Shown here one piece after another: positions 17,766 through 51,024 of a stretch of 64,000 nucleotides of DNA (positions within the stretch are counted from its first letter, which is position 1; each line of letters begins with the position of its first letter). The stretch is from assembly GCA_016212085.1 (NCBI GenBank), contig JACRHL010000003.1, positions 321,178 to 385,177 of the forward strand. Direction: 5' to 3'. Source of the DNA: Nitrospirota bacterium. GTDB taxonomy: Bacteria > Nitrospirota > JACRHL01. The notes below the pieces were generated by a model, which did no database searches, was not told the DNA's origin, and was given only the letters and a program-made list of their open reading frames with translations. The translations under genes and the position numbers were made by a program.

Positions 17766-18170
17766 ATGACCGACGGATTCTATTACGCGATACTCATATC
17801 CTGGCTGCTGTCGTTCCTGTTCTACGGCCTCGCCGGAGGGCTGATCAAGGCCCGCACGGTCGGCCGCACGCCGCACATCATGCTCACCGTGGGCGGCTTC
17901 ATGACCGACTTCGTCGCCTACTTCTTCCAGACCCAGCACCTGGTGATCCTGGCGGCCACCGTGCCCGGCTTCGCCCTGGACCCGGCGCTGCGCGGCTGGC
18001 AGACCGTGGCGACAAACCTGTCCATGGCCATGTATTGCGTGACGGCGATGTTCGGCTTCGCGCGCGTTGTCGGGTGGCACGGCGTGGGCCGCTGGCACGT
18101 GCCCGTGGCGCTGCTGTTCGTGGTCAACCTGGTGACGGCGCGGACCCTCTACTGGCGGCTGATTAACTAG
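17766..18170 (+). CDS. hypothetical small membrane protein
   Basis: 134-aa ORF with 3-4 predicted TM helices; ends with TAG inside the CTAG that flanks the downstream repeat; no recognised family. Confidence 0.4.
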   Translation: MTDGFYYAILISWLLSFLFYGLAGGLIKARTVGRTPHIMLTVGGFMTDFVAYFFQTQHLVILAATVPGFALDPALRGWQTVATNLSMAMYCVTAMFGFARVVGWHGVGRWHVPVALLFVVNLVTARTLYWRLIN

Positions 18171-18335
18171 CAGACTGTTGAAAAAGTCCTTCCATGGACT
18201 TTCTCAACTCGAAACCGGCAAAGCGCGGTTTCCCGGTTTCTCCGGATTGCAGGCGCTGACGCGCTCGCAATCCGCCGGCACATCCCTGTGCCGGACGCAG
18301 ACATGCCGAAAAACGGTGTTTTAACCGCCTGCTAG
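18167..18335. mobile_element. hairpin-rich mosaic repeat element, family A (copy 1), flanked by CTAG/CTAG
   Basis: Core 18171-18331 begins CAGACTGTTGAAAAAGTCC...GGACTTTCTCAAC (perfect hairpin), further hairpins inside; CTAG at 18167-18170 and 18332-18335 provide TAG stops to the convergent flanking genes. Confidence 0.6.
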
Positions 18336-20329: not shown

Positions 20330-21220
20330 ATGGGACCGCCTCGCCAGACACCGGGAACCGACCACGCGGCGCTTCGCGAGCACCGGGCCCACCCGCGCGC
20401 CTTTCACGAGAACCGCTACGTGTACGCCGTGCTGTCGCGGCGCTCCGGCGGCATCTCCATCGGCGTCAACCTGAACCCGGACAAGCGCTGCAACTTCGAC
20501 TGCATCTACTGCCAGGTGGACCGCCGGTGCATGCCGCCGCCGGAGCCGGTGAACCTGGAACAACTGCGCGACGAGCTGGAGGGCGTCCTGGCCGCCGCCG
20601 CCCGCGGCGACCTGTACGCCGAGGCGCGCTTCCGCGACCTGCCGCCCCCCCTGAGACAGGTGCGCGACATCGCCCTGTCCGGCGACGGCGAGCCCACCCA
20701 GTGCACCCGTTTCGAGCGGGTGGCCGAGGTGGTCACCGAACTGGCCGCCCGCCACGCCACGCCACCGCTGCCGGTGGTGCTGATCACCAACGCCACCGGC
20801 CTGAACCGGAGCCGGGTGGTGCGCGGGGTGGACCGCATCATGGCCGGCGGCGGCGCCATCTGGGCCAAGCTCGACGCGGGCACGGCGGAGCGCTACGCGC
20901 GCATCTGCGGCCACCGGGTGCCGTTCCGGAAGGTGCTGGACAACCTGGCGGCCACCGCGCGCCGCCACCCCGTCACCCTGCAAACCTGCCTGTTCAACCT
21001 GGAGGGCAGCCCCCCGCCGGACGGGGAGATCGACGCCTACGCGAAACAGCTCGCCAAAATATTGGCGAATGACGGTCAAATCCTTGGCATCCAGCTTTAC
21101 ACGGTGGCCAGAAAACCGGCGGAATCCTGCGTGACCGCCCTCGACGCGTCCACCCTGGACGCCATCGCCGCCCGCATCGGCGCGGCCCTGCCCACGGTGC
21201 CGCTGCACGTTTATCCATAG
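20330..21220 (+). CDS. radical SAM domain protein
   Basis: CNFDCIYC (CxxxCxxC) about 50 aa from start, preceded by SRRSGGISIGVNLNP; start uncertain (ATG 20330 vs TTG 20321). Confidence 0.7.
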   Translation: MGPPRQTPGTDHAALREHRAHPRAFHENRYVYAVLSRRSGGISIGVNLNPDKRCNFDCIYCQVDRRCMPPPEPVNLEQLRDELEGVLAAAARGDLYAEARFRDLPPPLRQVRDIALSGDGEPTQCTRFERVAEVVTELAARHATPPLPVVLITNATGLNRSRVVRGVDRIMAGGGAIWAKLDAGTAERYARICGHRVPFRKVLDNLAATARRHPVTLQTCLFNLEGSPPPDGEIDAYAKQLAKILANDGQILGIQLYTVARKPAESCVTALDASTLDAIAARIGAALPTVPLHVYP

Positions 21221-21385
21221 CAGGATGTTGAAAAAGTCCCTCCATGGACTTTTTCAACTCGAAAACGGCAAAGCGTGGTTTCCCGTTCTCTCCGGGTTTC
21301 AAGCGCTTGCGCGCCTGAAACCCGCCGGTACCTCCCTGTACCGGGCGCAGGCTGTTGAAAAAGTCCCTCCATGGACTTTTTCCAA
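21218..21385. mobile_element. hairpin-rich mosaic repeat element, family A (copy 2)
   Basis: Begins immediately after radical-SAM TAG stop: TAG|CAGGATGTTGAAAAAGTCCCTCCATGGACTTTTTCAAC...; same hairpin repeated at its 3' end; TAG/ATAG at both ends. Confidence 0.55.
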
Positions 21386-21507
21386 TAGACCGGCCCGTGA
21401 CCGGCGCCCGGCGGCGCCGCCGGCGCGGGGTTGGCGCAGGGTTGGCACGGGAAATGCTATTCCTAACCTTTCGGGAGGGACAAAACCGCCCCCCGGAAGG
21501 AATCGTC

Positions 21508-21591: not shown

Positions 21592-21658
21592 CGCACCCCC
21601 CCCCCGCGCCGGCAGGCCGGGCACGGTGTACCAATCCGTACACTGTGTACACCGTGGT

Positions 21659-21801
21659 GGGCACCTCTAAAAACCTGCTACGCGGTTCGATTGCTGCGTT
21701 GGGCGGTGCTCGAACCCTCTCCTATCACCATGATATGTCTCGGGTTCTGTGCTCCGGCCACCTTGCACTCGAACCGCTCGCAACGGTTTTTAGAGGTGCC
21801 C
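21659..21801. mobile_element. 143-bp MITE, family B (intergenic copy upstream of dnaE)
   Basis: TIRs GGGCACCTCTAAAAACC / GGTTTTTAGAGGTGCCC; 4-bp direct duplication TGGT on both sides. Confidence 0.7.
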
Positions 21802-21952
21802 TGGTGCACCCGTCACGGCCACGTTCCGGCCGCCCATCGAACAGGCACGCCACCCGGACGCCGCCCGCGCCGGGTGATCCCCCCGTGGCGACGGACGCCG
21901 CGGCTCGGCTAGAATGGGGGCAACCCGCAACCCGTTGTCACCCCGGACCGCC

Positions 21953-25579
<3,627 letters not shown>

Positions 25580-25620: not shown

Positions 25621-26574
25621 ATGGTGCGCCAATACCTGGATTTCGAGAAACCCATCGCCGACATCCACGAGCAGATCGAGTCCCTGCGCGCGTCCGGCGC
25701 CGCCCCCGGCACCCACGACAAGGAGCTTGAGCGCCTCACCAAGAAGGCCCACTCCCTCGAGGTGGACATCTACGGCAAGCTCTCCCCCTGGCAGCAGACG
25801 CAACTGGCGCGCCACCCGGAGCGCCCCTCCATGCTCGACTACGTGGAAAAGTTCGTGGAGGGCTTCCTGGAACTGCACGGCGACCGCGCCTATCGGGACG
25901 ATCCGGCCATCGTCGGCGGCATCGGCCGTATCGGCACGCGCGAGGTGGTGATCATCGGCAACCAGAAGGGCCGCACCCTCAAGACCCGCGTCATCCGCAA
26001 CTTCGGCATGGCCAACCCGGAGGGGTACCGCAAGGCCCTGCGCCTGATGCACATGGCCGAGCGCTTCAAGAAGCCCGTGGTCTGCTTTGTCGACACCCCC
26101 GGCGCCTACCCCGGCATGGGCGCCGAGGAGCGCGGCCAGTCCGAGGCCATCGCCCGCAACCTGATGGAGATGGGCCGGCTCAAGGTGCCCATCGTGGTGG
26201 TCATCATCGGCGAGGGCGGCTCCGGCGGCGCCCTGGCGGTGGGCGTGGGCGACCGCATCCTGATGCTCGAGAACTCCGTCTACTCCGTCATCTCCCCCGA
26301 GGGGTGCGCGGCCATCCTGTGGAAGGACGGCACCAAGACCGCCACCGCCGCCGAGGCCCTGAAGGTGACCGCCAAGGATCTGTTGGCGCTGAAGGTGATC
26401 GACGAGATCCTGCCCGAGCCCCTGGGCGGCGGCCACCACGACGTGACCCAGATGTCCACCACCATCCGCACCGCCATCGTGCGCCACCTGGACCAGCTCG
26501 AGAAGATGTCCGAGAAGGAGCGCACCGAGGCCAGGTACCAGAAGTTCCGCGCCATGGGCGTGTACGAGGGCTAG
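25621..26574 (+). CDS. accA: acetyl-CoA carboxylase carboxyltransferase subunit alpha
   Basis: 317 aa colinear with remembered AccA (DFEKPIA, FDDPAIVGG-like, GEGGSGGALA); RBS ggag. Confidence 0.95.
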   Translation: MVRQYLDFEKPIADIHEQIESLRASGAAPGTHDKELERLTKKAHSLEVDIYGKLSPWQQTQLARHPERPSMLDYVEKFVEGFLELHGDRAYRDDPAIVGGIGRIGTREVVIIGNQKGRTLKTRVIRNFGMANPEGYRKALRLMHMAERFKKPVVCFVDTPGAYPGMGAEERGQSEAIARNLMEMGRLKVPIVVVIIGEGGSGGALAVGVGDRILMLENSVYSVISPEGCAAILWKDGTKTATAAEALKVTAKDLLALKVIDEILPEPLGGGHHDVTQMSTTIRTAIVRHLDQLEKMSEKERTEARYQKFRAMGVYEG

Positions 26575-26652
26575 ACCGCTGGACGGTACAGACCGAGACG
26601 CCCCCCGAGACGACGCCCCGCCCGGCGCCCCCGCGCCCCAGCCCCCCCGGTC

Positions 26653-26742
26653 CGCCGGCAGCCTGCCGGACAATTCCCTGCCCGACGGCAGCCCGCCGGA
26701 TGATTCGTTTTCCGACGGCAGCCTGCCGTTCGGGCCCCTGCG
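26653..26742 (+). repeat. three tandem 30-bp direct repeats, each with a near-palindrome GGCAGCCTGCC
   Basis: Units cgccggcagcctgccggacaattccctgcc / cgacggcagcccgccggatgattcgttttc / cgacggcagcctgccgttcgggcccctgcg. Confidence 0.6.
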
Positions 26743-26947
26743 CTACCGCATCGACCGCCGCGAGATCGCCTATTTAAGCTCCCTGTTCGAGTCCTACGAG
26801 GACCTGGGCGCCATCCGTACCCTGGACCCGGTGGCGGCGATCATCGAGGTTCTGTATGCTCCGGATTGCTACGCGGACGTGGTGGCGTTGATGACGGCGC
26901 TGGAGGGGGAGGTGGAGAGCCTGGAACGGATGCCACCGCTCCCGTAG
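26738..26947 (+). CDS. small conserved-looking ORF (DUF4911-like) lacking a canonical start codon
   Basis: Protein-like translation ...YRIDRREIAYLSSLFESYEDLGAIRTLDPVAAIIEVLYAPDCYADVVALMTALEGE...; no in-frame ATG/GTG/TTG upstream; CTG at 26738 proposed; family assignment from memory only. Confidence 0.3.
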   Translation: MRYRIDRREIAYLSSLFESYEDLGAIRTLDPVAAIIEVLYAPDCYADVVALMTALEGEVESLERMPPLP

Positions 26948-26968
26948 GCTGGCGCTGAATGAAATGAA

Positions 26969-27023
26969 GCCCAACGGTTCGGGGTTGCCGACGAACCATG
27001 AACGGGAAACGGGGGTGTTGGGC
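26969..27023 (+). other. attC-like site (candidate): GCCCAAC ... GTTGGGC
   Basis: Perfectly complementary 7-mers matching integron core consensus RYYYAAC / GTTRRRY, 41 bp apart, at the left boundary of the low-GC island. Confidence 0.3.
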
Positions 27024-27089
27024 TTCGCGTTGCATGCGCCAGAAGCTCGTCGATACAACGCTCCAATCGCCTGGGGATGGGAGATGGTC

Positions 27090-27815
27090 ATGAAGAAACT
27101 TGAAATTAAGAACTGGGACGGATTTTCGGGCAAGATCAGCGAAATTGAAAAGGATGCCTCGGAAAACAGCAACGCCATTCGGCTATTCCGAGGGGTTACC
27201 GATCATCAACATAACCTAGTCCCGAAAATCGGGAGACCCGGCGCGCGGAAGAATCCGGCAGATGGGACGCAACTGTCCCATTGCAAGGATGAAGAGCGTA
27301 AGATGTTGGAACTGTTCAAGAGGACGGCTCTTCCATACCTTCCATATCAGCCCAGGAATGATCTGGAGTGGCTTGCCGTTGCCCAACACCACGGAGCGCC
27401 GACCCGCCTGATTGACTGGACGGAAAGTCCCCTGGTTGCAGCGTATTTCGCGATGGAGAAGGCTGGCACGGAGGGGCAGCCGGCGATCTACGTGCTTTCC
27501 GGGACTGCGGAAGCCCCGGAGAAACTAGTTGACGAAAAGCCGGATGTCTTCTCCTGGACCGAGACGTACTGCTACCGTCCGCCACACATCAGTCCCCGTA
27601 TCCAAGTTCAGCGGAGCGTGTTCACCATACACCATTGTCCTTCGTCGGAGTTCAATCCAGATAACCTTGAAAAATGGGTGTTCCCGAAAGGTCCAACGTG
27701 CTTCGAGATCAAACGCATACTTGATCGTGTGGGCTTTAACCGAGCATCCCTATATCCAGATTTACAGGGGTTGGCAGAACACGTCGGATGGTGCTACAAG
27801 TGGGGCCGCTTCTAG
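27090..27815 (+). CDS. FRG-domain protein
   Basis: LFRGVTDHQHNLVPKIGR and AQHHGAPTRLIDWTESPLVAAYFA motifs characteristic of the FRG domain; ~47% GC versus ~70% background; ATG 27090 with gggag RBS. Confidence 0.7.
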   Translation: MKKLEIKNWDGFSGKISEIEKDASENSNAIRLFRGVTDHQHNLVPKIGRPGARKNPADGTQLSHCKDEERKMLELFKRTALPYLPYQPRNDLEWLAVAQHHGAPTRLIDWTESPLVAAYFAMEKAGTEGQPAIYVLSGTAEAPEKLVDEKPDVFSWTETYCYRPPHISPRIQVQRSVFTIHHCPSSEFNPDNLEKWVFPKGPTCFEIKRILDRVGFNRASLYPDLQGLAEHVGWCYKWGRF

Positions 27816-27880
27816 TGGCAAGTTGGGGTTCGCTCCGCTCTGCCAAACTTATATAGCTTTTCCAACTGGGAAACCGTGCT

Positions 27881-28276
27881 TTGAACATCCACGCAATCAC
27901 CGTCTCAGCCGTTAGGATCGCTCTAGCTGCTCTCATGTGCGGCGGATTGGCATCTTGCGTCCATACACGAAGTATCACCTACGAAACGACCGACAGGCCG
28001 CCGAAGCCACAAGACCGATTGATCGGGATCGTGGACTCCCAAACCGTTACTAGGCCATTCACGATCATCGGTGTTGTAGAAGGAAACGCCGGGAAGCTGC
28101 ATAGTGTCGTGGATACGTTGGAAAACCTCAAGCGTGCGGCTCGGCGGATGGGCGGCGACGCCTTGATGGATATTCAACACGGGCCCAAGGGGGGTGTGGC
28201 AGTGCCCTTCGGAAGCGGCTATGCCTATGGGAATTTAAGGGAAATCTGGTCAGCGAAAGTGATTATCTGGCAGTAG
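27881..28276 (+). CDS. putative lipoprotein (hypothetical)
   Basis: Signal peptide with lipobox LASC; ~55% GC; TTG start at 27881 (uncertain); weak resemblance to the YbjQ-like fold only. Confidence 0.4.
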   Translation: MNIHAITVSAVRIALAALMCGGLASCVHTRSITYETTDRPPKPQDRLIGIVDSQTVTRPFTIIGVVEGNAGKLHSVVDTLENLKRAARRMGGDALMDIQHGPKGGVAVPFGSGYAYGNLREIWSAKVIIWQ

Positions 28277-28279
28277 CCC

Positions 28280-28347
28280 GTTGGGCAGAGCAACGCGAAG
28301 CCAAACGCCACGGTGGCCACCCGTGGCACTCCGGGAAGGCGTTGGGC
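28280..28347 (+). other. attC-like repeats at right boundary of low-GC island
   Basis: GTTGGGC (28280-28286), GCCAAAC (28300-28306), palindrome gccacggtggccacccgtggc, GTTGGGC (28341-28347); the 17-mer GTTGGGCTTCGCGTTGC recurs inverted relative to the left boundary. Confidence 0.3.
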
Positions 28348-28451
28348 TTCGCTACACTCTTCCCAACCTACAATTCGCGCTCTATGGGCGCGCCGATTTC
28401 CCCCTCATAGACGTCCGGTTTTGCGCCGAACCCGGAGACACCCAACCTCCC

Positions 28452-29147
28452 CTAAGGCATCGAATAAACGGTTGGGTCTTCCTGCCCTGCCTCCACAAAT
28501 CCCCTCCTCCGCAAAATGCAGCTATCGCACTGCCCGCACGCCCGGCCCTTCTCGTCCGGGTCGTAGCAGCTATGGGTCAGGCCGTAGTCCACCCCCAGGC
28601 GGATTCCCTCCCGGATGATGTCCGCCTTGGTCATGCGGATCAGGGGGGCGTGGATGGTGAAGCGGCCGCCCTCGGCGCCGGCCTTGGTGGCCAGGTTGGC
28701 CAGGTTCTCGAAGGCGCCCAGGAATTCCGGCCGGCAGTCCGGGTAGCCCGAGTAGTCGATGGCGTTGGCGCCCACGAAGATGTGGAACGCGCCCAGCACC
28801 TCGGCATAGGCCAGGGCCAGGGCCAGGAACACCGTGTTGCGCGCGGGCACGTAGGTGACCGGGATGTCGTCCCCCATGTGTTCGGCGCTGCGGCCCTTGG
28901 GCACGTCTATCGCGTCCGTCAGGGCGGAGCCGCCCAGGTCGCTCAAGTCCACCCGCACCGTCTTGTGGGCCAGGGCGCCCCCGGCCGCCGCCACCTTCCG
29001 CGCCGCCGCCAGTTCCACCCGGTGGCGCTGGCCATAGTCGAAGCTGATGGCGTAGGGGGCGTAGCCCTGGGCCTTCGCCATGGCCAGCACCGTGGCCGAA
29101 TCCAGGCCGCCGCTCACCAGCACCACCGCCTTCCGGACACCTTCCAA
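28452..29147 (-). CDS. queC: 7-cyano-7-deazaguanine synthase
   Basis: N-terminal [14 protein letters not shown]-loop, C-terminal Zn-binding CGQCDSC; proposed TTG start 29147 lies inside the adjacent MITE terminus. Confidence 0.8.
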
Positions 29148-29277
29148 AACCTGCCGCGCGCCCCGATCGCTGCGTTGGGCGGTGCCCGGCCCCTCGCCTA
29201 TCGGCTTGACATGTCTCGGGGCCTGCGCTCCGTCCGCCTTGCGCTCGGGGCGCTCGCCACGGTTTCCGATGGTGCCC
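29135..29277. mobile_element. 143-bp MITE, family B (degenerate copy at queC 5' end)
   Basis: Degenerate TIRs GGACACCTTCCAAAACC / GGTTTCCGATGGTGCCC; internal sequence matches other copies (ccgagacatgtc, gcgatcggggcgcgc). Confidence 0.6.
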
Positions 29278-29457
29278 GTCTGTCCCGTGTTCATGGGGGC
29301 GATTTTGGGCACGGGGGCGTGATCCGTCAAGCCACGCCCGGCGCCGGAACCGGCGCGGGGGCGTGGCACCGGGCCCGTGGTTGGGATACACTGGCCCCTT
29401 TCCGCGTTCCGCGCCGGGGGACACCTCCCGCCACCATATGGATGTGAGCCAACGCCC

Positions 29458-30459
29458 GTGACCACAGCGAACCCCCTTGCCGACGCCCTCCACGCATTCG
29501 CCGACGCCGTGCCGTACCGCGCCACCGGCGCCGAGACCGTGCCCCTGGCCGAGGCCGCCGGCCGCGTGCTGGCCGCGACCCTGACCGCCCCGGAGGACGC
29601 CCCGCCCTACCACCGCGCCATCGTGGAGGGCTTCGCCATACACCTGGCGGACACCAAGGAGGCATCGGCGGAGCATCCGGTGATCCTCAGGATCGTGGGC
29701 CGGGTGAATCCGGGCGACGCGGAGTTCCCGCTGTTCCATACCGGCGAGGCCGTCCAGGTGGCCACCGGCTCCATCATGCCCGACGGCCCCTTTGCCGTGG
29801 CGCGCATGTTCGAGGTGACGGTGCACGGCGGCACGGTCAGCCTGTCGCGCCCCTTCCCGCCGCGCTTCTTCATCGAGGAGAAGGGGTGCGACCACACCCA
29901 GGGCAGCCCCGTCGTCTCCGCCGGCACCCGCCTGGGCCCCGTCCACATCGGCACCATCGCCAGCCTGGGCATCGACACGGTGACGGTGGCCCGCCGCCCG
30001 CGCGTGGCCATCTTCTCGTCCGGCGACGAGGTGATCCCCCACACCTCCCCCATGCGCCCCGGCGCCATCCGCGACGGCAACCAGCCCATGCTGGCCGCCG
30101 CCGTGGCCCAGGCGGGCGCCATTCCCGCGCCCCGGGGCATCATGGGCGACGATTTCGACGGCTTCGTGGCCGCCGTGAAGGCCGCCCTGGCGGACAGCGA
30201 CATGGTGCTGATCTCCGGCGGCACCGCCGTGGGCGGGCGCGATTTTATTTCCGACCTGGTGAAGGCCGTGGGCACGCTGGTGGTGGACGGCGTGCCCATG
30301 CGATCCGGCCGGCCGCTCATCATGGGCGTGGCCGACGGAAAACCGCTGGTGTGCGTGGCGGGCCACCCGCCGGAGGCGCTGCGCGGCTTCGGGCTGTTCG
30401 GCATGGCCGCCCTGACCCGCCTCACCGGCCACGACGCCCCCCTGCCCGCCGACGGCTGA
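29458..30459 (+). CDS. MoeA-like molybdopterin-binding protein (N-terminal and MoCF-binding domains only)
   Basis: MoeA-type motifs ([28 protein letters not shown]); ~333 aa, shorter than canonical MoeA; GTG start uncertain. Confidence 0.6.
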
Positions 30460-34281: not shown

Positions 34282-34446
34282 GGGCACCTCTATTAACCGT
34301 CGCGCGCGCCCCCTGGTGCCAGGTGCCCCGAGCGGAGCGGCACCGTTACGCCGCGCGGAACCCGAGACATATCCGGGTGATGGGCGAGGGTTCGAGCACC
34401 GCTGGGCGCGGCAATCGGGGCGCGCGGCAGGTTGATAGAGGTGCCC
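34282..34446. mobile_element. 165-bp MITE, family B (copy with internal expansion)
   Basis: TIRs GGGCACCTCTATTAACC / GGTTGATAGAGGTGCCC; no matching target duplication; abuts transposase remnant. Confidence 0.7.
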
Positions 34447-34610
34447 AGGCGTTTGGCGTCCGACACGGGCGTGCCACCGAACTTGTTGCGCCAGAGGTAA
34501 CAGCTCGCCTCCGAGAACCCGTGCCGCCGGCACAAGTCCTTCACCGGCATTCCGGCATCGGCCTCGCGCAGAAAACCGGTGATCTGCTCTTCCGAAAACC
34601 GCTTCTTCAT
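34447..34610 (-). pseudogene. IS3-family transposase OrfA N-terminal fragment (truncated by MITE)
   Basis: MKKRFSEEQITGFLREADAGMPVKDLCRRHGFSEASCYLWRNKFGG...DAKRL (HTH region of IS3/IS911-type OrfA) with GGAG RBS; reading frame then runs into the repeat. Confidence 0.55.
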
Positions 34611-38557: not shown

Positions 38558-38690
38558 GTTCCCATGCAGTGTGTTGCAAAAGCTCTTCCCCGGCTTGTTC
38601 AACTCGAAACCGGAAAAGCGTGGTTTTCCGGTTTCTCCGGCGCCAGAAAAGCCTCTCACACGGATTGTCACCCTGCGGATGCGGGCGGGT
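38558..38690. repeat. partial family A repeat element
   Basis: ttgttcaactcgaaaccggaaaagcgtggttttccggtttctccgg closely matches the central hairpin module of the other family A copies. Confidence 0.45.
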
Positions 38691-39436: not shown

Positions 39437-39581
39437 GGGCACCTCTATTAACCGTCGCGAGCGCCCCGAGCGCAAGGCGGACTTAAGCGGAGAACCCGAG
39501 ACATATCATGGTGATAGGAGAGGGTTCGAGCACCGCTTAGGCGCAGCAATCGGGGCGCACAGCAGGTTAATAGAGGTGCCC
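39437..39581. mobile_element. 145-bp MITE, family B
   Basis: TIRs GGGCACCTCTATTAACC / GGTTAATAGAGGTGCCC; 4-bp duplication ACAT on both sides. Confidence 0.75.
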
Positions 39582-44976: not shown

Positions 44977-45109
44977 GGGCGACTAAAAACTACTGCGCGG
45001 CTCGATTGCCGCGTTGGGCGGTGCCCGCACTCTCTCCACGAGATGTCTCGGGTCATGCGCTCCGTCCGCCTTGTGCCCGAACCATTCGCGTCGGTTGTTG
45101 GCGGTACCC
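44977..45109. mobile_element. 133-bp MITE, family B (degenerate copy)
   Basis: Degenerate termini GGGCGACTAAAAAC / GGTTGTTGGCGGTACCC; internal match to family core. Confidence 0.55.
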
Positions 45110-48302: not shown

Positions 48303-48322
48303 GCGCTGGCCCTCCATGCTCA

Positions 48323-48465
48323 GGGCACCTCTATTAACCGTCGCGAGCGCTCCGATTGCAAGGCGGACGGAGCGGAGAACCCGAGACATATCTGGGTGAT
48401 AGGCGAGGGTTCGAGCACCGCCCAACGCAGCAATCGGAGCGCGCAGTAGGTTAATAGAGGTGCCC
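48323..48465. mobile_element. 143-bp MITE, family B (inside mer operon, between merP and merB)
   Basis: TIRs GGGCACCTCTATTAACC / GGTTAATAGAGGTGCCC; 4-bp duplication CTCA on both sides. Confidence 0.75.
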
Positions 48466-48466
48466 C

Positions 48467-48748
48467 TCACTCGACCGGCCGCGAGGGGTAGCCGGCGTTG
48501 GTCGTCGCCCGGGTGAGGGCCCCCACGTCCGTGAGCACATCGTCGAACGTCACCACGGCTTGCTTGTGCAACAGGGACACCTTGACCGCCTTCACGCCGG
48601 GAACATGGGAAAGGGCCTTTTTCACGGTGATCGGGCAGGTGACGCAGGTCATCCGCTCCACCCCCAGGGTGACGGTCCGCTCCGTCGCGATGGCGTTTCC
48701 GGTGGACACCAGGAGAGCGACGGCCACCAGGATCGGTACAAGCTTCAT
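48467..48748 (-). CDS. merP: periplasmic mercury-binding protein
   Basis: Signal peptide plus HMA motif GMTCVTCPITVKKAL; 93 aa; AGGAGGG RBS. Confidence 0.85.
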   Translation of the reverse strand: MKLVPILVAVALLVSTGNAIATERTVTLGVERMTCVTCPITVKKALSHVPGVKAVKVSLLHKQAVVTFDDVLTDVGALTRATTNAGYPSRPVE

Positions 48749-49989: not shown

Positions 49990-50155
49990 CAGGTTGTTGA
50001 AAAACGGCGTTTTTCGGCATGACTGCGTCCGGTACCGGGAGGTACCGGCGGATTTCACGCGGGCAAGCGCCTGGAATCCGGAGAAACCGGGAAACCGCGC
50101 TGTTCCGGCTTCAAGTTGAAAAAGGCCACGGATGGACTTCTTCAACATCCCGCCG
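49986..50155. mobile_element. hairpin-rich mosaic repeat element, family A (copy 4, opposite orientation)
   Basis: Starts at merR stop: CTAG|CAGGTTGTTGAAAAACGG...; ~80% identical to the reverse complement of copy 1. Confidence 0.55.
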
Positions 50156-50160
50156 GACCA

Positions 50161-51024
50161 TCAGCCGGGCGAATCCGCCTTAAGCCACGCGGCCAGGTCG
50201 GCGAACACCGCCCGGCGCTCCGTTTCCAGCAACACCTCGTGGAACATCTCCGGGTATTCCCGGTAGGTGGCCGCCGGGCAGCGGGCGCACCACGCCCGCG
50301 CCGCCGCCGGCGCCACCACCCGGTCGGCGCCCGCCTGCAAACACAACAGCGGCAGGTCCACGTCGGCGGCGTGGGCGTTCACGAACGCCATCTCGCGGCA
50401 CACCTCCGTGAACCAGCGCACGTTCACCCACTTGAAGATGAGCGGGTCGGCACGGCGCCGCGCCTCCTGCTCCGGGTCGTGGCTGTTGGCGTAATCGCCG
50501 CCCCCGGCGGGTAGCGACAGCCACGGCAACGCGCCGCTGACCAGCTCCCCCAGGCGCCGCCGCAGGGGCGGCACCGGCAGGCGGATCGCAAGCAGCGGCG
50601 AGGTGACGGCCACCCGCTCCACCCCCCAGCGCGCCAGCGCCGCGGGGCGCCGGATCAGGGACGACAGCGCCACCAGGCCGCCGGTGCTGTGGCCGAGCAG
50701 GGCCCAGCGCGCCACCCCGGAGCGTTCGCGGGCGGTGGCCAGGGCCTGGTGCAGGTCGTCCAGATACTCCTCGAAACGCCCGAGGCGGCCACGCAGGCCG
50801 CTGGAGCGGCCATGGCCACGCGGGTCCATGGCCCACACGGCCAGGCCCCGGCCCGCGAAGAACGCGAACAGCTCGCCGTAGCGCTCCAGGTGGTCGGTAT
50901 AGCCGGGCAGCAGGAACAGGCCGCGGCCGGCGCCGTCCGGGGTGATGCCGGCCAGGTGCAGGCGGGCGCCCGGAACGGGCAGGGTCAGGTGCTGGGTGCC
51001 CTCGGGAAGGGGGCGGGGGGTCAC
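50161..51024 (-). CDS. alpha/beta-hydrolase (lysophospholipase/monoacylglycerol lipase-like)
   Basis: Nucleophile elbow GHSTGG, HGRSSG oxyanion region; GTG start 51024 overlaps upstream stop (GTGA). Confidence 0.75.
   Translation of the reverse strand: MTPRPLPEGTQHLTLPVPGARLHLAGITPDGAGRGLFLLPGYTDHLERYGELFAFFAGRGLAVWAMDPRGHGRSSGLRGRLGRFEEYLDDLHQALATARERSGVARWALLGHSTGGLVALSSLIRRPAALARWGVERVAVTSPLLAIRLPVPPLRRRLGELVSGALPWLSLPAGGGDYANSHDPEQEARRRADPLIFKWVNVRWFTEVCREMAFVNAHAADVDLPLLCLQAGADRVVAPAAARAWCARCPAATYREYPEMFHEVLLETERRAVFADLAAWLKADSPG

Follow-up and report, generated by a model that had tools for sequence, protein, structure and literature searches.

A DUF4911 gene directly downstream of accA in a Nitrospirota bacterium lacks a canonical start codon and probably begins at a CTG

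Introduction

Described counterparts of the gene considered here include infC and pcnB of Escherichia coli, which start at AUU and are the only confirmed natural near-cognate starts in that organism (bioRxiv 10.1101/063800). Initiation at CUG, AUC, AUU and AUA in E. coli reaches about 1-2% of the AUG level (bioRxiv 10.1101/063800), so that near-cognate initiation is possible but weak. The present analysis concerns a small gene for a protein of the Pfam family DUF4911 (PF16256), which lies next to accA in a stretch of 64,000 nucleotides from a Nitrospirota bacterium (GenBank assembly GCA_016212085.1, contig JACRHL010000003.1, positions 321,178 to 385,177, forward strand; hereafter the window, numbered from its first letter). 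Like infC and pcnB, this gene has a near-cognate codon at the start position, and by analogy weak expression would be expected from it; it differs in that CTG occupies this position, or ATC in some of the relatives, and in that the position varies among GTG, TTG, CTG, ATG and ATC across the clade. In further contrast to the E. coli genes, IF3-dependent autoregulation is not indicated at the DUF4911 gene, where near-cognate initiation is what we infer from comparative sequence evidence.

Other known systems share particular features with the locus. Proteins of the PF16256 family have the full-length domain in common with the product of the window gene, which is distinguished from them by the longest N-terminal extension and by the absence of a canonical start codon. 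Translationally coupled gene pairs show the same 4-nt gap between stop and start, the same kind of Shine-Dalgarno (SD)-like sequence, here a GAGGG in the last two codons of accA, and no promoter or terminator between the genes. A start 4 nt after the accA stop is common to the related loci L016, L002, L036 and L037 (relatives are designated by L numbers throughout), with the start of L025 at 3 nt, but it is the geometry that points to coupling here, and the starts of other relatives lie 12-240 nt downstream. In-frame expansions produced by slipped-strand mispairing, finally, resemble a 30-bp tandem repeat at the 5' end of the window gene in having a period that is a multiple of three, copies that are 73-80% identical and a location in a low-complexity segment that is predicted to be disordered; at this locus, however, there are only 2.6 copies, which have already diverged, and the repeat is thus not a hypermutable phase-variation tract. 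Our verdict is that the odd features of the locus reflect a rare but known kind of near-cognate start, a CTG for which coupling to accA is probable, and an ordinary in-frame tandem duplication in a disordered tail.

Results and discussion

An intact DUF4911 gene without a canonical start

The accA gene (25621..26574, + strand), which encodes the alpha subunit of the acetyl-CoA carboxylase carboxyltransferase (Pfam ACCA, E = 2e-143), ends in GAG GGC TAG, with the stop codon at 26572-26574, and its product is 100% identical to the NCBI protein P0024 from a metagenome-assembled genome (MAG), which is encoded on a contig of 448,149 bp. Frame 2 is free of stop codons from 26447, within accA, to a TAG at 26945-26947. 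An initial reading of the window from its letters and open reading frames (the sequence-only reading) had described this frame as a protein-like ORF with no in-frame ATG, GTG or TTG, which is borne out: none of these codons occurs between 26447 and 26831, and the first, GTG 26831, yields the 38-amino-acid product of the ORF list and was rejected as a start because half of the Pfam domain would be lost. The C-terminal 69 codons match PF16256 over the whole profile (26744..26914, + strand; profile positions 1-57 of 57, E = 1.9e-13, 50.7 bits versus a gathering cut-off of 29.3). The roughly 65 C-terminal residues that had been judged protein-like, and for which a profile search had been suggested, accordingly belong to a known family with identifiable homologues. 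In fact, the NCBI protein MBI5136036.1 (P0001, ‘MAG: Nitrospirae bacterium’, 122 amino acids, MDGTDRD...) is the product of this same ORF, taken to start at CTG 26579.

In a protein search, 23 members of the DUF4911 family were recovered, with P0001 as the best hit and with metagenome contigs of Nitrospirota type as the source of nearly all; the window protein has 64-83% identity to its DUF4911 counterparts in other Nitrospirota MAGs. All close homologues carry, upstream of the Pfam domain, the motif D-[SAT]-L-S-D-x-S-L-P-x-G-P-L, which in the window is DSFSDGSLPFGPL (D-S-F-S-D-G-S-L-P-F-G-P-L; 26702..26740, + strand). Its S, P, G, P and L are nearly invariant among the 23 homologues, and D, S, L, P, G, P and L are invariant in an alignment of 16 sequences. 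The window protein has the motif in frame and retains every residue that is invariant across the 23 homologues. Given the conservation of the motif in all close relatives, the coding region must reach upstream of 26702, and the only in-frame near-cognate codons upstream of that position are the CTGs at 26579, 26663 and 26678.

A three-taxon Nei-Gojobori comparison of the window with L009 and L007 over 73 aligned codons gave dN = 0.036 and dS = 0.328 on the window branch, a ratio of 0.11 (0.44 on the L009 branch and 0.51 on the L007 branch). This low ratio, together with the retention of the invariant residues, indicates purifying selection for most or all of the separate history of the gene. 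Neither a broken frame nor relaxed selection, the marks of a pseudogene, was found: the ORF and the domain are intact. The GC content by codon position in frame 2 is coding-like for 26651-26743, at 0.68/0.61/0.87, as compared with 0.67/0.40/0.87 in the domain and 0.66/0.41/0.96 in accA. The small DUF4911 gene is thus real and intact. The CTG start of the NCBI annotation was chosen independently and is defensible, and the gene is not to be marked as a pseudogene.

The order dnaE-accA-DUF4911 is common to the window and to L001-L004, L025 and L036. The distant homologue L022 has as neighbours genes for a NAD kinase and a MiaB-like radical-SAM enzyme and no accA, so the linkage to accA is specific to the clade. 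The frame of the DUF4911 gene relative to accA is 0, +1 or +2, depending on the relative; as a consequence of this variation, a programmed frameshift or readthrough from accA was rejected as the mode of expression.

The proposed coding sequence (26579..26947, + strand; 122 codons and a stop) gives a product of 122 amino acids, as compared with 68-104 in the homologues, and the surplus is an N-terminal extension that bears the repeats. This extension (26582..26701, + strand) is rich in Pro, Asp and Ala, includes repeat copies 1 and 2 and is predicted to be disordered (AlphaFold pLDDT of about 50 for residues 1-50); the frame-2 translation includes the N-terminal DGTDRDAPR... and the SLPDNSLPDGSPPDDSFSDGSLPFGPLR region. 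With about 55 amino acids and an internal tandem triplication, the extension is the longest in the 16-sequence alignment, and relatives have shorter extensions of like composition after their distal GTG, TTG or CTG starts. The remainder of the AlphaFold model is a predicted beta-alpha-beta-beta-alpha(-beta) core at pLDDT 70-88. A Foldseek search of the PDB returned generic ferredoxin-like matches only, the best being HMA domains (E = 0.045); the core is confidently ferredoxin-like and these matches are too generic for the structure to be informative about function. No NCBIfam model matches the protein, and no mention of DUF4911 was found in the literature searched.

Start codons of relatives and the case for CTG 26579

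Our preferred explanation, to which we assign a probability of roughly 0.6 from the sequence comparisons set out here, is that translation starts at CTG 26579 (26579..26581, + strand) and that this codon opens a functional DUF4911 gene directly 3' of accA and in the same orientation. The CTG lies 4 nt after the accA stop, and 8 nt upstream of it the last two accA codons (E-G) contain the SD-like GAGGG (26566..26570, + strand). The calculated SD duplex at CTG 26579 is -6.4 kcal/mol, compared with -6.1 kcal/mol at the accA start, both with a generic anti-SD sequence and not the host's own; the other in-frame CTGs have no SD-like partner and reach only -2.1 to -3.2 kcal/mol. Nearly all clade members examined end accA with codons that contain GAGGG, GAAGG or GAGGA, and such purine-rich terminal codons would fit an SD sequence that forms part of accA. 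Between accA and the DUF4911 gene, no site resembling a promoter or a terminator was detected.

A survey of start positions in 21 distinct lineages revealed two that recur: a proximal position, which is the codon directly before D-x-L-S-D, and a distal position 0-26 nt after the accA stop (at most 8 nt in most lineages), which is followed by a short Pro-rich linker. The proximal codon is ATG in L013, L035 and L004, TTG in L029-31 and ATC in L016 and L018, with ATC also present in L015, L032 and L034. The distal codon is GTG in L002, L036, L037, L003, L011 and L034, TTG in L032 and CTG in L025/26, L009, L015/17 and the window. In the window, the proximal codon is GAT, where relatives have ATG, TTG or ATC. 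The correspondence of the distal CTG to the GTG of relatives extends to the surrounding sequence, which reads TAG-ACCG-CTG-GAC in the window, TAA-ACCC-GTG-GCG-GAC in L037, stop, 4 nt and GTG-GCG-GAC in L002 and L036, and TAA-CCC-CTG-ACC-GAC in L025; the distal codons of L009, L015 and L032 stand in the contexts CTG-ACG-GAC, CTG-ACC and TTG-ACC, respectively. In L025, L009 and L015 the CTG is 3-8 nt past the accA stop (3 nt in L025).

In five of the 21 lineages (the window, L025/26, L016, L018 and L015/17), no canonical start precedes the motif in frame. Where other lineages have ATG, TTG or GTG, L016, L018 and L015/17 have ATC, and L025 and L015/17 have CTG, with the candidate codons at positions 185-187 of L016, 867-869 of L018, 281-283 of L015 (1525-1527 of L017) and 3461-3463 of L025. 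All candidate non-canonical starts of relatives are accompanied by an SD-like sequence (-4.6 to -7.5 kcal/mol with the generic anti-SD), and several of the canonical proximal ATG and TTG starts of relatives are not. The closest relative by AccA (84% identity) is L025/L026, which is represented by two contigs of identical sequence, one from an NCBI MAG and one from Logan; as both agree, an assembly error is an unlikely cause of its missing start. Truncated gene calls in relatives are explained by the lack of an in-frame canonical start upstream of the motif: the product called in L025 has 76 amino acids from a TTG at the leucine of G-P-L and loses the conserved motif. In L029, which belongs to the lineage with a TTG start, an internal ATG was chosen and the called product has 68 amino acids. 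Taken together, the alignments suggest that the start codon wanders among ATG, GTG, TTG, CTG and ATC, with about a quarter of the lineages lacking a canonical start.

The proposed sequence of events at the ribosome is then as follows. Ribosomes would start at CTG 26579 by using the GAGGG in the last accA codons, probably in translational coupling with accA, and the 122-residue product would consist of the disordered Pro/Asp-rich extension of about 55 residues, the clade-specific DSFSDGSLPFGPL and the ferredoxin-like DUF4911 domain. The sequence-only reading had listed a rare CTG start among its possibilities, and the evidence favours one at 26579; the CTG at 26738, which was implied by the translation proposed there for 26738-26947, would delete the conserved motif.

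Several observations weigh against this explanation. Initiation at CTG is poor in E. coli, the duplex energies were calculated with a generic anti-SD sequence, and the long extension is common to no relative, so that selection on the extension itself cannot be estimated. A further point is the GC content by codon position of 26575-26650 (0.96/0.72/0.81), which carries no clear frame-2 codon signature; the C-richness of this segment leaves all frames open and renders a frame analysis by GC content at third codon positions (GC3) uninformative there. Most serious is an ATG at 26700-26702 (+ strand), which lies in frame 0, one base off the DUF4911 register, exactly where the proximal start of relatives is found (ATG in L013, L035 and L004; TTG in L029; ATC in L016 and L018), followed in them by GAC or GAT and then TCC.

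This ATG allows for an explanation by frameshift, namely that the ancestral gene began with ATG GAT TCG TTT TCC GAC (M-D-S-F-S-D-G-S-L-P-F-G-P-L) at 26700 and that a G is now missing from it. The loss would have happened in the organism, in which case the gene became a pseudogene only very recently, or it would be an error of the assembly; on this view, repeat copies 1 and 2 would be duplicates that lie upstream of the gene and do not encode protein. The window reads GGATGATTCG here, and the version with the additional G, at 26698-26705, is GGATGGATTCG. A single G inserted into CCGCCGG-ATG-ATTCG, which changes the start of the frame to ATG GAT TCG (M-D-S), restores M-D-S-F-S-D, comparable to TTG GAT TCC in L029, ATC GAC TCC in L018 and ATG GAC ACC in L013, and this restoration fits a frameshift about as naturally. 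The chance occurrence of NAT-G at the proximal site is uncommon at a GC3 of 0.96, and the -2.1 kcal/mol calculated at ATG 26700 is no objection, given that the proximal ATG starts of relatives also lack an SD sequence. However, the gene shows no signs of decay (the branch ratio of 0.11 and the full set of invariant residues), for which reason a real deletion would have to be very recent, and the site is not a homopolymer. A frameshift also leaves unexplained the in-frame, SD-equipped CTG 4 nt past the accA stop that matches the GTG starts of relatives, the repeat period that is a multiple of three, and the closest relative L025, which likewise has no canonical start and in which there is no frameshift to invoke. 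In addition, P-P-D-D-S-F-S-D of the ungapped frame 2 aligns with P-P-V-D-S-L-S-D of L007. We therefore regard a lost G as an unlikely explanation, albeit the main alternative and one that deserves real weight. A normal ATG in an overlooked frame had been named in advance as an observation that would count against a non-canonical start; the ATG at 26700 does answer to this description, but weakly, as it is out of frame. Slippage by -1 from ATG 26700 on TTTT was also considered and is unlikely: the run is limited to four T's, re-pairing of the P-site codon is impossible and a stimulatory structure is lacking.

Another non-canonical start, in or after the repeats, could be imagined at the CTGs 26663, 26678, 26723 or 26738, which are all in frame, and the sequence CTG 26663-CCG-GAC-AAT-TCC-CTG parallels ATG-CCG-GGT-GAC-GCC-CTT of L009 (M-P-x-D-x-L). 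None of these codons, however, has the SD-like partner that distinguishes CTG 26579, and starts at 26723 or 26738 remove part or all of the conserved motif. CTG 26663, for its part, is not a mutated ATG: it is paralogous to the Leu codon inside S-L-P, as the 9 nt upstream of it belong to the repeat as well. Initiation at one of these internal codons is accordingly improbable.

The segment between the proposed start and the tandem repeat has a composition of its own. It is C-rich and G-poor in 26590-26649, 3' of the accA stop, with short direct repeats (CCGAGACGCCCC, then CCGAGACGACGCCCC) and a tract of period 8 (CCCCGCGC, 3.6 copies, 26621-26649; score 37 in Tandem Repeats Finder (TRF)). Apparently weakly structured, it would resemble a Rho utilisation site by its composition if it were untranslated, and may be listed as a candidate for one.

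The tandem repeat and its palindromic core

The 30-bp repeats with a palindromic core that had been pointed out in the sequence-only reading are confirmed by TRF, which finds period 30, 2.6 copies, 80% matches and a score of 98 at 26652..26728 (+ strand), with units from about 26652, 26682 and 26712; a repeat search of the sequence places three in-register copies at 26651, 26681 and 26711. The sequence matches itself at a lag of 30 nt in 38 of 47 positions, compared with a maximum of 32 in 500 composition-preserving shuffles, and the repeat is thus statistically real. The identity between copies 1 and 2 is 73% over 30 nt, and copy 3 matches them over the first 18 nt only. The period of 30 nt (10 codons per unit) is a multiple of three and preserves the frame, in which their translation is SLPDN-SLPDG-SPPDD-SFSDG-SLPFG; of these five pentapeptides, only the last two have counterparts in relatives (D-SLSDA-SLPFG).

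The palindromic core is CGGCAGCCTGCCG in copy 1 (26656..26668) and in copy 3 (26716..26728), and CGGCAGCCCGCCG, with one mismatch, in copy 2 (26686..26698). In copy 3 it lies inside the codons GAC GGC AGC CTG CCG (D-G-S-L-P) of the conserved motif, and from this coincidence the repeat unit can be traced to the gene's own 5' coding sequence. The same 15 nt occur once within the coding sequence of L009, whose protein is 82% identical, and other relatives encode the same peptide with the non-palindromic codons GAC GCC TCC CTC CCC. On account of the single copy in L009 and the non-palindromic codons elsewhere, the palindrome can be understood as a codon accident that was spread by duplication; this comparison of coding sequences makes the core a by-product of the codons GGC-AGC-CTG-CCG.

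Two perfect palindromes of 13-15 nt at a distance of 60 bp, and an imperfect one in the interval, would also be expected of an operator array for a dimeric regulator or of a structured leader, and a different tandem array, of 34-bp units with a small palindrome, lies 3' of accA in L028. Yet the palindrome spells the codons of G-S-L-P, stands singly in the coding sequence of L009 and is replaced by non-palindromic codons in other relatives. Nothing beyond one match with a single mismatch recurs elsewhere in the 64-kb window, and neither a promoter-like nor a terminator-like site lies between accA and the gene. RNA folding of the repeat region is no better than that of shuffled sequences (z = -0.27), and the region has no Rfam match (E <= 1). 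A functional DNA or RNA element is therefore highly improbable, and the suggestion that the repeats are binding sites for a regulator, also made at the outset, finds no support. We conclude that the repeats go back to an old tandem duplication, in frame, within an N-terminal segment that is predicted to be disordered, and are not a regulatory array.

The segment that expanded in tandem is 5' coding sequence of the gene itself; the expansion kept the frame, probably arose through replication slippage, and added two extra, degenerate versions of S-L-P-D-G from the motif. The lineage of the window would have lost the proximal start, which would leave the distal start alone, with CTG in place of GTG or TTG. 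The earlier proposal that the repeats expanded into the 5' end of the gene and destroyed it is thus upheld as regards an in-frame expansion and a proximal codon that now reads GAT, but the gene was not destroyed, with its domain intact and a branch dN/dS of 0.11. As for the exact history, several scenarios are compatible with the sequences, both for the unit that was duplicated and for the disappearance of the proximal start, and closer relatives would be needed to choose among them; no sequence from the same species was found in GTDB representative genomes, JGI metagenome contigs or the protein collection, in which P0001 forms a singleton cluster, and an exact look-up gave no contig.

The L028 array (AccA 81% identical) stands directly 3' of the accA stop and extends from 1131 to 1278, where the contig ends. 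It consists of at least 4.4 copies of GCCGACCCGTACGACGGGCAACGATAACGCTGGC with 95% matches and has a small palindrome, CCCGTACGACGGG, in each unit; its period of 34 bp is not a multiple of three, and it is presumably non-coding for this reason. Degenerate remnants of an array of the L028 type are found in the 236-nt spacer of L027. From these sequences, the junction of accA and the DUF4911 gene seems to be prone to repeats in several lineages.

Other elements of the window

Directly 3' of the DUF4911 stop, the GC content falls to 50-58% over about 26950-28450, compared with about 70% in the window. This stretch contains an ORF for an FRG-domain protein (26964-27815; Pfam FRG, E = 8e-26), with a likely start at ATG 27090 behind a strong SD sequence, and a small ORF for a putative lipoprotein-like product (27881-28276). 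Relatives have glyoxalase or globin genes in its place, from which the stretch appears to be an inserted island. A perfect 10-nt inverted repeat (GAAGCCCAAC / GTTGGGCTTC, 26966-26975 / 27017-27026, 41 nt apart) is located at its boundary with the DUF4911 gene.

The window also holds seven copies of a dispersed palindromic element of about 145 nt that is similar to miniature inverted-repeat transposable elements or to repetitive extragenic palindromes (24463-24607 (+), 21654-21803 (-), 29135-29287 (-), 34282-34447 (+), 39437-39581 (+), 44985-45109 (-) and 48321-48470 (+)). The element has 17-nt terminal inverted repeats (GGGCACCTCTATTAACC ... GGTTAATAGAGGTGCCC) and forms one long hairpin, in which compensatory changes between copies have altered 12 pairs on both sides; it has no Rfam match. 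The copy at 24463-24607 lies in frame within the essential dnaE (21914-25579), to which it adds about 48 amino acids (GGTSIDRRERSECKADGAQDPRHVQWMGEGPSTAQRSNRGAQQVDRGH) in a variable loop, and the dnaE of the closest relative, L025, is free of the element. Another copy forms the apparent N-terminal part of a queC-like ORF (28452-29525, - strand). The element recalls the palindromic elements of Rickettsia, which insert into coding genes. A second dispersed family, of 130-167 nt with 81-91% identity and the motif GTTGAAAAAGTCC..CCATGGACTTTTTCAAC, occurs in both orientations at 18156-18322, 21218-21350, 21347-21389, 38594-38640 and 50001-50167.

Implications

The locus shows that a gene can survive the reshaping of its 5' end by a tandem duplication that keeps the frame. 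CTG and ATC starts have very rarely been confirmed in bacteria, and standard gene callers, which take ATG, GTG and TTG only, truncate or miss the genes that have them; the locus and its relatives offer a compact set of sequences on which non-canonical initiation and translational coupling to accA can be tested by comparison. That the DUF4911 protein is deliberately kept at a low, accA-coupled level by weak start codons in this Nitrospirota clade is a tentative idea, which we hold to be possible though rather doubtful. If it is selection, and not drift, that maintains the weak starts, these would be natural and phylogenetically recurrent bacterial genes initiated at CTG or ATC, and such an arrangement might tie the dosage of an uncharacterised DUF4911 protein to that of acetyl-CoA carboxylase.

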